From the NCBI RefSeq assembly GCF_045037415.1, contig NZ_CP173438.1: DNA of 64,000 nt. One strand, given 5' to 3'. Numbering within the stretch: position 1 is the stretch's first letter; the number at the start of each line of letters is the position of its first letter. Of the stretch, positions 1 through 3,000 are shown piece by piece. Source of the DNA: Escherichia coli. Lineage in GTDB: Bacteria; Pseudomonadota; Gammaproteobacteria; Enterobacterales; Enterobacteriaceae. A program made the position numbers.

Positions 1-3000
1 TAAAAATTTTTCCCCGGATTTGCCGTTGTCGTAGCTGTCATGCAACACGCTCATGACGTCAGACACGGTGACGATAATCACGCTGCGCCCCTTCACCATC
101 AGCCGGTTGCCCATCGCCGCTGCAAGGTGATTTTTCCCGGTGCCGGTTTTACCGCTGAACACAAAATTCGTGCACCCGGTCATCAGTTCGTCAGCTATGG
201 ATTTGGCCTGGCTCAGCGCGTATTTTTGCCCGTCGTTCTGCACCTGATAATTTGCAAACGAGCATTTGCTGTGCAGAGGCTGGATGCCCGAACGATTCAG
301 GATTTTTTCCACCCGCAACTGGCGATTCTGGCGGTTAATCTCCTCGCTGCGTTTTCGTCCTTCAGCAAGTTGCCATTCCCGCCACTCCTCCACCGTCCGG
401 TACGGTGGAACCGACCCCTGTGGTGCAAGTCTGCGAATACGTTCAAGAACCCCAACTGCCGCAATGTTTTTCATGACACGTCACCCCCTGAATCCCGGCG
501 GTATTTCAGTGTCCGGTTCAGAAATGTGATTCACGCAACGCTGCGCAGGCGAACGCCCCAGGCGGATAACCAGTTCATCCCATTTTTCCCGGAGTTTTGC
601 CGGACTCATGATGTTTTTTACCCAGAACGAATCCCGCTGGAGACGCCCAAACATTTCACAAATTTGTCTGTGAGTTCTGCCATCCAGCATCCGCATTGTG
701 CGAACGTCATTGGCCCATGCTGTCCAGTTGGGTTCTTTCGGTCTAGTGATCTCGCCATCATAGCTGGCCGCCTGCTCGTAAAGACTCACGATTCGTCCCC
801 AGATCCACTGTGCGCACACCAAATCTTCCTGACTTCCCCACTGGCGTTTTTTCGCACTGAACACAACCGCGTCAGGGTGTCGGGTTAAAAAATCCTGTTC
901 AGCCGTCTGCGGGTCCGGTTGCGAAGCGTCCGGACAAGAAGATCTTTTATCTGACGGATCAGGTTTTAATACTGACGGATCGGGGTCAATCATCGGCCCC
1001 CTAATCGGCAGTTTTTTATCAACAGTTGATCCATCAAAATTTGACGGGTCAACCGTTGAGGGGTCAATATTTGACGGGTCAACTGTTAACGGGTCATTTT
1101 TTGCCGGGCTAATTTTTCTTTTCGGTTTATATGACTCACGCGCCGCCGCCGCAGCTGCTTCGAGTTTTTCCACATTAAGCCGATAGATATTGCTTACATT
1201 ACGCCCACCGACCTTACGCTCTTCCTTCGTCAGCCAGCCCTCTTTCGCCAGTTCTGCAATAGCCGATTTCACTGTGGATTCACTTCTTGCACCGATCTGA
1301 CGCCGGATAGTTTCAATGGCAGGCCATGACACGCCCTCGTCATTGCTGTAGTCTGCAAGACGGGCCATAACCGCCACCCTGGATAAGATCATGCCGGTGA
1401 AGGCGCACCCTTCCCAGACAAGACCATGAAGCTTGCTGCTCATAAAACCCCCGAACACCGTGCTTTTAGTGCATCACCACAGCATTCCCTGCCGGGCCGC
1501 CGCGATTCATCTGGTCATACAAAACAACCGCTGACGCAACAAAATCATCGACATCCTTCACCAGCCGATCCCGCCGTTCGACGATCTCACGGTAATATTC
1601 AGAACTGTGGCTGCGCATACGGGCCACCAGCAAAGGCGGCATCGCCTTTTCGATCGCCGGTAACAGAGCCTGCATTTTTTCAACAGCATCAGGGGTGTCT
1701 TTATCCAGCCAACGGAAAATTTTCTGGGTATTACGGGCCAGGGCTTCCGGATGGCTGTCGTCATACAGTTCCGGGAACGTCATTCCCAGCTCGAAATACG
1801 CTTTGGTAATTTTCGCAGCCGGCACTTTTTCGCCGTCCGGATGCGCCCAGGCATTCATCGCCATGCGGATGTGTTCATGCTTGATTTTCATGAATCATTC
1901 TTTCCTTCGTTCGAGGTGCTATCCTGCTTCTTGTAAAGTTCTGGGTTGTATTTCAATTCACCGTTAGTAATTTCATCCAGTTCCATTGCGCGAAGTTTGG
2001 GAATAACTGCTTTCCACCGCACAACAGCCACATGTGAAATTCCAAGAGCCTCAGCTACTAGTCGCTTTTTTTTGAAATAGCGCAGAACATCATCTTTGAA
2101 CATAAAACTCTCCTGTTATTTCGAGCAGAAGGGTAACAATAGTTACATAACAATGTCAACCATAGCAACATCACTTGGTAGTAACATTGGTTACATGAAA
2201 AACACTATCAGCGAACGTATTCGGAATCGTCGAAAAGACGTTGGATTAACCCAACAGCAGGTTGCGAAAGCAATCGGCATATCTCGTGTATCCGTAACAA
2301 AATGGGAAAATGGCTCTTCAAAACCTGACGGTGAGAATTTGTATCTACTGTCAAAATTGCTTTCCAAATCTCCTGAATGGATTCTTTATGGAAAGGACGG
2401 TCACGATAAAACCGATGATCTGCGTCTGAATCAGTACCCTTACATTAGTGACAACATCGCCCGGTTGCCCGTTTTAACGTGGGAACAGGCTGGTTATTGG
2501 GATATGAGTTGTCCAGTAACCAAGATTCCTGGTATTAAGAACTGGGTTGATGTCATGACAAAAACCGCTGAAAACTCTTTTTTATTGCATGTTGAGGGAG
2601 ATGCGATGACAAACTCTAACGGCCTCCCAACCATCCCCGACGGATCTACCGTGCTGATCACACCATGCTCAAGTAACATTAGAGAACTGGTGGGAAAAAT
2701 AATCTTAATCCAATTGGAAGGAACGCCAAACGTAACACTAAAAAAAGTTGCGATTGACGGACCAAACATCTATCTGTTGTCACTGAATCCGCTTTACAAA
2801 CCCATCGAACTGAATGGTGGTTACACCATTAAAGGTAAAGTTTCACAAATACATCAATACTTAGACTGAGTCAGAACCCGCATTCATTGCGGGTTTTTTA
2901 TGCCCTCAAATGTACCTTTTGCAACATTGTATTGACTCGAAAGGTAACTCTTGTTACCTTAACAACATACCAACCCACCCCGCCCCACAGAACGCCGGGC

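Follow-up and report, generated by a model that had tools for sequence, protein, structure and literature searches.

A probable replication origin embedded in a non-λ initiator gene of an Escherichia coli lambdoid prophage

Replication origins that lie inside the gene for their own initiator are an established feature of the lambdoid phages. In λ, four annotated iterons occupy the DNA encoding amino acids 117-145 of the O protein and AT-rich DNA lies next to them, and phages phi80, 82, 21 and P22 (gene 18) have their own iterons inside the analog of gene O. In the classical lambdoid phages the iterons are inherited together with the N-terminal part of the initiator, whose C-terminal part is matched to the partner that loads the helicase. 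Bacillus phage SPP1 has its oriL inside gene 38, whose product binds repeats within its own coding sequence; its protein and repeats are unrelated to those described here, and its host is Gram-positive. Here we describe an array of 15-bp repeats within the O-like initiator gene of a prophage in E. coli (RefSeq assembly GCF_045037415.1, contig NZ_CP173438.1), analyzed in a 64,000 bp stretch that is called the window below and to which all coordinates refer unless stated otherwise. We conclude, with a probability of roughly 0.78, that this prophage starts its replication at bp 937-1138, in the part of its initiator gene that encodes the interdomain linker. It is very probably a λ-style origin in a non-λ initiator family, with origin activity predicted from the O-like gene context, an array whose position and period are kept in 17 homologs, selection at the DNA level, and a placement within a disordered linker that matches that of the λ iterons. 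What is new is the origin in this initiator family; the in-gene architecture itself is already known, and the element is of an ordinary kind.

The elements of the candidate origin and the gene that contains them are the following:

481..1443, minus strand: O-like replication initiator, 320 amino acids if translation starts at the ATG at 1443, with the GTG at 1458 as a possible alternative start farther upstream
1109..1138: AT-rich tract named by the initial annotation of this DNA, 27% GC, located before the array in gene orientation and encoding ESYKPKRKI
1099..1113: degenerate unit that precedes the array in gene orientation, minus strand ATTAGCCCGGCAAAA
1084-1098, 1069-1083, 1054-1068, 1039-1053 and 1024-1038: core tandem array of five 15-bp units, minus-strand reading nTTGAC-CC-GTCAAnn
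1009..1023: last unit, left half only (GTTGAT), then an A6 tract
979..993: isolated half-site copy, minus strand ATGATTGACCCCGAT; its plus strand holds the GGGGTCAAT core of the initial annotation
949..984: two spaced core copies with GATC at the center, minus strand CCCGATCCGTCAGTA at 970-984 and CCTGATCCGTCAGAT at 949-963
937..985: candidate unwinding region, with GATC at 941, 957 and 978; its least stable 30 bp are 942-971 (30% GC)

The array is thus composed of head-to-tail 15-bp units at bp 1009-1113, five of them good and two degenerate. Read in frame on the coding strand from 1098 downward, the units are AATGACCCGTTAACA, GTTGACCCGTCAAAT, ATTGACCCCTCAACG, GTTGACCCGTCAAAT and TTTGATGGATCAACT, followed by the half unit GTTGAT and A6 (to 1009), and the dyad TTGAy-NN-rTCAA is present in all five full units. 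Tandem Repeats Finder returns a period of 15 with 5.2 copies (1019-1096 and 1040-1117) and 30-bp super-periods at 82-84% match, and a repeat search gives five copies at exact 15-bp spacing, with CTGACGGATC(A/G)GG at 951-963 and 972-984 and GGGGTCAAT at 982-990 and 1060-1068. The initial annotation had seen at least seven GACGG(A/G)TC cores within about 150 bp in the middle of the initiator gene and had proposed a repeat-finder check; the check returns this period-15 array, and seven such cores (at most one mismatch) do lie in the 143 bp from 953 to 1095, compared with 50 on both strands of the entire 64 kb. Four of the window's five exact GACGGRTC matches fall in this interval, and all three matches to TTGACSSGTCAA (at most one mismatch) in the window lie within the array. 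The annotation was also correct that the repeats encode a repetitive DPS-rich peptide, which reads NDPLT VDPSN IDPST VDPSN FDGST VD ... DPDPSVLKPDPSD; the array corresponds to amino acids 116-142 of the initiator and the extra copies to amino acids 151-165. Since inverted half-sites alternate, the array is also a 33-nucleotide (nt) imperfect palindrome, and folding of the single strand gives a long hairpin (z = -4.6). The count of perfect 5-N4-5 dyads in the window array is zero, which is uninformative because the dyad of the window lineage is TTGAC-N2-GTCAA, and Rfam gave only sub-threshold chance matches.

A pentapeptide repeat in a predicted disordered linker, whose copy number shifts in slippage-like steps, might be just that: a flexible DPS-rich peptide that arose by slippage and has no role as DNA, with the origin elsewhere. 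The lag-15 DNA identity of the window array is 0.64, compared with 0.475 ± 0.041 for synonymous recodings of the same peptide, of which 2 in 20,000 reach the observed value, but recent duplication alone could yield this excess, and relatives were therefore compared. A scan of IMG/VR with the N-terminal 175 amino acids gave 80 loci, all 99-100% identical, and protein homologs and their contigs were used instead. N-domain homologs reach down to about 45% identity in many Enterobacterales and their phages, and the comparison set comprises 17 initiator genes, namely that of the window and the DNA of 16 homologs (from Escherichia, Serratia, Klebsiella, Salmonella, Enterobacter, Pectobacterium, Pluralibacter and Yersinia, and phages SfII, phiP27 and LLS), with N-domains 48-92% identical. 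All 17 have a five-codon (15-bp) tandem array at the same codons, with lineage-specific units: nTTGACCCnTCAAnn in the window clade, TTTGAGGGGTCAAAA in Klebsiella, TCTGAACCGTCAGAn in Salmonella and phiP27, and TCTGACnCnTCAAAA in SfII, LLS and Pluralibacter. Past the array, 11 of the 17 have a tract of five to seven A.

A lineage-weighted logo of these units, with the phase set by amino acids alone, reads TyTGA-N4-TCArA, with informative positions T3, G4, A5, T10, C11, A12, R13 and A14. Position 3 is a third codon base and is T in 93% (1.57 bits), even though the codon that it closes encodes any of ten amino acids (S, F, I, K, T, R, N, P, V and Y). Likewise, A makes up 91% at position 12 (1.55 bits), where the Ser codon has its third base. 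By comparison, third positions at 27 conserved N-domain residues with at least four-fold degeneracy average 0.40 bits (maximum 1.19), so synonymous sites are saturated across the set. In a base-filtered set of units, whose inclusion filter is circular for positions 3-5 and 10-11 (the logo figures come from the amino-acid phasing instead), Ser is TCA in 62 of 65 codons as against 105 of 388 elsewhere in the genes. Phasing of the units on Ser alone was dropped, as some lineages were mis-phased. Base conservation that is heedless of codon boundaries and of amino acid identity implies selection on DNA, and judged by these sequences the array units are maintained as DNA, not as protein. In addition, the 2.9-kb replication region of one allele contains no second repeat cluster. 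It is thus very improbable that the repeats are a peptide linker and nothing more.

The informative positions of the unit form a dyad (positions 1-5 and 10-14) whose half-site centers are 9 bp apart, a spacing that suits a winged-helix dimer. Unit type is correlated with N-domain sequence (Mantel rho 0.59, 0 of 5000 permutations), and less so with the freely exchanged C-domain (rho 0.34); this fits a binding domain that would travel with its sites. The domains of the initiator are:

1129..1443, minus strand: N-terminal winged-helix domain, amino acids 1-105, AlphaFold2 predicted local distance difference test (pLDDT) score 75-90, helix-helix-helix-helix-hairpin-helix
544..987, minus strand: C-terminal domain, amino acids 153-300, homologous to the C-domain of λ O
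484..546, minus strand: C-terminal tail ...SEPDTEIPPGFRG, amino acids 300-320, resembling the tail of DnaT (primosomal protein I)

The N-domain is presumed from its modeled fold to be the DNA-binding part that recognizes the origin. Its best Foldseek matches are winged-helix dimers of the MarR/ArsR/PadR type, some of them solved on DNA, although the matches are weak (E from 4.5e-3; TM-score relative to the target 0.45-0.65). Pfam HTH_36 matches amino acids 25-71 (E=3.8e-6). In the AlphaFold2 model the pLDDT is below 50 for amino acids 108-176, which span the array and the GATC cluster discussed below, and so the peptide encoded there is probably a tolerant linker; the C-domain is helical. The tail was the sole match of the initiator in a sequence search of PDB; it matches 2ru8, 6aep and 9zbt there and NCBIfam PRK02854, weakly, with E values of 0.004-0.03 over 21 residues. 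A similar [IV]P.GFR[GS] ending is present in homologs with otherwise different C-domains (P0043, P0067, L093 and L091), which hints at a common contact with host primosome or helicase-loading proteins.

The arrangement can be compared with that of the λ origin. In both, the proven or candidate origin is found midway along the initiator gene, within the interdomain linker, and repeated dyad sites are followed by a less stable segment and then by a homologous C-domain; the window array covers amino acids 116-142, compared with 117-145 for the λ iterons. BLASTP aligns only amino acids 153-300 with λ O (35% identity over 148 residues, E=5e-26), and within this alignment the initiator peptide DPDPSVLKPDPSDKRSS, which is encoded by the GATC cluster, pairs with the λ O peptide encoded by the λ AT-rich region. 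The N-domain shows no BLASTP similarity to λ O, and no λ O N-terminal family is among the Pfam matches. The λ-like organization that the initial annotation had claimed for the repeats is supported by the position of the array, and the C-domain is λ-like too. The N-domain is of the HTH_36 type, so the window initiator is not a strict member of the λ O family. Further differences are that the units are 15 bp and strictly head to tail, whereas the λ sites are 18 bp and 20-24 bp from start to start, that the unit sequence is unrelated to the λ iterons, that the presumed unwinding segment is about 57-70% AT and contains GATC sites, unlike that of λ, and that the partner gene is DnaC-like rather than λ P. 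Iteron number varies between relatives, with a change in protein length, in the λ and Shiga toxin (Stx) phages and in the window family alike, and Stx-phage variants of the λ ori with six iterons have been described (PMC7466680).

It must also be considered that the units do bind the initiator, but for autoregulation, copy control or as a transcription roadblock, with the origin lying elsewhere, for example beyond the loader gene. Iterons of P1-type plasmids are generally known to repress the initiator promoter and to handcuff origins as well, and the window ends inside the loader gene, with the DNA downstream covered only in alleles, to 2.9 kb. However, the position of the array matches that of the proven λ origin codon for codon next to a homologous C-domain, a conserved low-stability GATC-rich segment adjoins the sites, and the cro and cII genes separate the sites from the distant promoter region. 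We therefore regard a purely regulatory array as improbable, if less so than a pure peptide linker, and favor its being part of the origin.

The segment just mentioned lies on the C-terminal side of the array, where CCCGATCCGTCAGTA and CCTGATCCGTCAGAT are followed by AAAAGATCT (bp 984-937). All 17 genes carry two or three copies of GATCC(G/A)TCA, in the looser form GATCC(G/A)(T/C)(C/A)A, 35-90 nt past the array, and these copies are themselves like the array core (yTGA-TCCG-TCArA). In the window GATC is present in the two spaced core copies and in array unit 4, and at least four GATC sites per 100 bp are found at only three places in the 64 kb, of which this cluster is one; the other two are at about 24393-24479 and 52395-52473. 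The cluster contains one of the three least stable 30-bp stretches of the gene in 16 of the 17 homologs. Of the 45 Asp codons in D-P-[SQ] motifs beyond the array, 36 are GAT and so give rise to GATC (GAT is used for 60% of Asp elsewhere), and the remaining nine, with GAC, are all GACCC(G/C/T)-TCA/CAG, lack GATC and by inspection resemble extra array-type units.

The AT-rich stretch that the initial annotation placed after the repeats does exist (1109-1138, at about the 98.7th percentile of low duplex stability among 30-bp windows of the 64 kb; 1096-1135 is 33% GC), but it is modest, lies before the array in the orientation of the gene, and ranks with the least stable stretches in the window and L083 lineage alone, not in the other 15 homologs. 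Two further troughs, 1010-1044 and 940-974, are equally weak. Of the three troughs, which are 27-38% GC, only that at the GATC cluster is conserved, and it is only about 2 standard deviations below the mean stability of the gene. The conserved cluster could have been retained for another reason, as a recombination joint between N- and C-terminal modules or for the peptide motif PDPSxxxxDPS, with unwinding at 1109-1138 or 1010-1044 instead. In a phage collection, DNA similarity to mEp460-type phages is confined to bp 488-981, which places a mosaic joint near 981, within the cluster; the cluster is kept whichever type of N- or C-domain flanks it; D155, P156, D162 and P163 are nearly invariant in the protein; and the tract upstream of the array is slightly less stable in the window. 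On the other hand, GAT is preferred in the D-P-[SQ] motifs, the cluster holds one of the three weakest stretches of the gene in 16 of 17 lineages when the upstream tract is not conserved, and it aligns with the λ AT-rich segment; these points speak for a role as DNA at this place. We thus think a joint or peptide motif somewhat unlikely as the reason for the conservation, and put the odds that the unwinding element sits at the GATC stretch 937-985 at about even.

Several other features of this DNA may be recorded here. The candidate origin of about 200 bp is flanked by two stretches that rank with the most stable of the window, 1130-1165 and 900-930 (0.2-4.5th percentile of 30-bp duplex free energy), and the upstream one encodes a run of Ala (GCN x7). 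TTTTCCACA at 1166-1174 (plus strand), inside the part encoding the N-domain, matches the DnaA-box consensus TTWTNCACA perfectly, and TTATCAACA at 1016-1024 (plus strand), at the end of the array, is a DnaA box with one mismatch; a scan of gene nt 280-560 in the homologs, which covers 1016-1024 and not 1166-1174, found no DnaA boxes recurring at the corresponding position. In λ (L101, its positions 1160-1185), the sequence to the right of the AT-rich region, TTCGTCAGAGAATTCTGGCGAATCC, resembles CCGTCAGAATCTGGCGGGGATCC, a motif located just ahead of the GATC cluster in the clades of SfII, Salmonella and LLS (L093, L086, L096 and others); this likeness could be a remnant of common origin-core ancestry or a coincidence.

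A number of observations weigh against the identification of bp 937-1138 as an origin. The literature searches found no paper on the origin of this HTH_36 initiator family. The 17 sequences represent perhaps 10 independent lineages, and physical linkage alone could give the association between N-domain and unit type. By inspection, the two half-sites of a unit do not covary base by base, and the notion of compensatory half-site change (TTGA..TCAA versus CTGA..TCAG) was dropped for want of consistent pairing inside the units. The family-logo pattern TYTGANNNNTCARA has zero exact matches in the window, because the window lineage uses nTTGA...TCAAn. Units that abut every 15 bp (about 1.4 helical turns) would set neighboring dimers on nearly opposite faces of the DNA, unlike the arrangement in λ. 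Finally, no segment is strongly AT-rich, the best 30-bp stretches being 27-30% GC (about the 95th-99th percentile of the window), and the λ unwinding region looks much more AT-rich by eye.

If bp 937-1138 do form the origin, initiation might proceed as follows. Transcription from the cro-side promoter would yield the initiator, whose winged-helix N-domain, probably as a dimer, would bind the five to six contiguous 15-bp units and the two spaced GATC copies. The resulting nucleoprotein complex, comparable to the λ O-some and perhaps aided by the A-tract past the array, would then destabilize the neighboring weak segment. The segment opened would most likely be the conserved GATC stretch 937-985, located where the AT-rich region sits in λ. 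The λ-O-like C-domain and the DnaT-like tail would recruit the DnaC-like loader with host DnaB. Firing may in addition be linked to Dam methylation and SeqA through the GATC sites.

The unit is exactly five codons and the units abut, so sites can be added to the array or dropped from it with the gene left intact. In close E. coli alleles the array indeed changes in exact five-residue steps and has two to five good units, and several of these alleles have damaged units. We offer, as a speculation that we hold to be doubtful, that this is an expandable in-frame origin in which copy number tunes both origin strength and linker length, and in which the GATC copies may tie firing to Dam and SeqA. 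We know of no lambdoid phage origin for which Dam/SeqA control of that kind has been described. Elsewhere, the P1 plasmid oriR has heptamer repeats with GATC, and Vibrio cholerae chromosome 2 has RctB iterons with GATC; like the window, both have Dam sites inside or beside their repeats, but those origins are outside the initiator gene and are used by unrelated initiators. Replication of V. cholerae chromosome 2 is reported to require adenine methylation (PMC2865523).

The initiator lies in an early region of lambdoid type, in which the order is cI-like repressor, cro/DicC-like, cII/YdaT-like, O-like initiator and DnaC-like loader:

2195-2869, plus strand: cI/LexA-like repressor gene
2103..1888, minus strand: cro/DicC-like gene
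1891..1466, minus strand: cII/YdaT-like gene
474..1, minus strand: DnaC-like helicase loader (NCBIfam PRK12377, E=2.3e-93; DnaC, E=3e-49; PHROG 50), its 3' end past the start of the window

This block is the replication module of a lambdoid prophage. The initiator matches PHROG 391 ("replication initiation O-like") with E=4.2e-115, and its label in RefSeq is only "helix-turn-helix domain-containing protein" (WP_000095675.1). At the initiator stop/loader start junction lies TGACACGTCA (474-483, plus strand), a TGA-N4-TCA dyad that resembles the core of the array unit; the window contains 16 such dyads compared with 17.6 expected, and this copy may be due to chance. An 823-amino-acid open reading frame at 4710-7181 (plus strand) probably belongs to this prophage too, in its early-left region; the 2472-nt counterpart in an E. 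coli genome with the same initiator allele is called "exonuclease" and lies beside dicB and ydfD.

Identity with the replicon of the K-12 Rac prophage (oriJ) was considered and rejected. The initial annotation had suggested a comparison with Rac-like origins, and the Rac initiator proves to be a different protein: between ydaT and ydaV Rac carries YdaU, a DUF1376 protein, whereas the window has HTH_36 with a λ-O-like C-domain. The two initiators were set apart by their families, without direct alignment, and only the flanking genes (YdaT-like and YdaV/DnaC-like) match in family. The papers found on oriJ contain only mentions of it.

The N-domain and its array are joined to at least six types of C-domain or partner. 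The partner is a DnaC-like loader in the window and in phiP27 (followed there by a DnaB-type replicative helicase), and other types include DUF977, λ P, Phg_2220_C, a Toprim/AAA_25 helicase-primase, IstB plus DnaB, and a DnaT-type domain. Downstream of the λ-O-like type of C-domain, L084 (Serratia) and L092 have λ P, and L002 and L083 have a DUF977 protein; the same C-domain type thus has differing partners, and the pairing is looser than the classical O-P rule. Of 5426 complete E. coli genomes, 1520 contain the DNA of the N-domain and array, those of O157:H7, ST131 and ATCC 25922 among them. Among the 60 N-domain relatives listed (of 101 records), the phages are SfII, SfIV, phiP27 (NC_003356), LLS and prophage-derived phages, and none is phi80, 82, 21 or P22. 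No origin feature is annotated in any record fetched (the RefSeq genome of the window and the phage records of relatives).

More distant N-domain relatives, in Min27 (L102), ZF40 (L104) and Vibrio phage D290 (L103), have two 24-bp (eight-codon) repeats right after the N-domain, at about amino acids 92-120, and the Min27 repeat (GGGCAGGAGCTGCCC) and the ZF40 repeat are visibly palindromic. These look like candidate in-frame origins of the same kind with another unit length, and the principle of an origin inside the initiator gene would thus be general. In phiP27 (L094, NC_003356.1, its positions 1501-2427), an HTH_36-type initiator (L17) is followed by DnaC-like and DnaB-like genes, whereas a "phage P27" is reported to have a λ-like O protein with six iterons (PMC7466680); either the name covers two different phages, or the replicon in that work derives from another clone.

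The comparison of third codon positions used here is a cheap and general way to separate DNA elements within coding repeats from plain peptide repeats. A known origin location would be useful for the construction of minimal replicons, and it bears on defense systems that sense phage origins: LmuB of Lamassu is enriched at the λ iterons during infection (bioRxiv 10.1101/2025.04.02.646746), and the window array likewise forms a long single-strand hairpin. The module is common in E. coli and yet is annotated without an origin, and its location would aid the reading of prophage induction and sequence coverage data. Given that several alleles have damaged units, a known origin would also help to predict which of these prophages still replicate.

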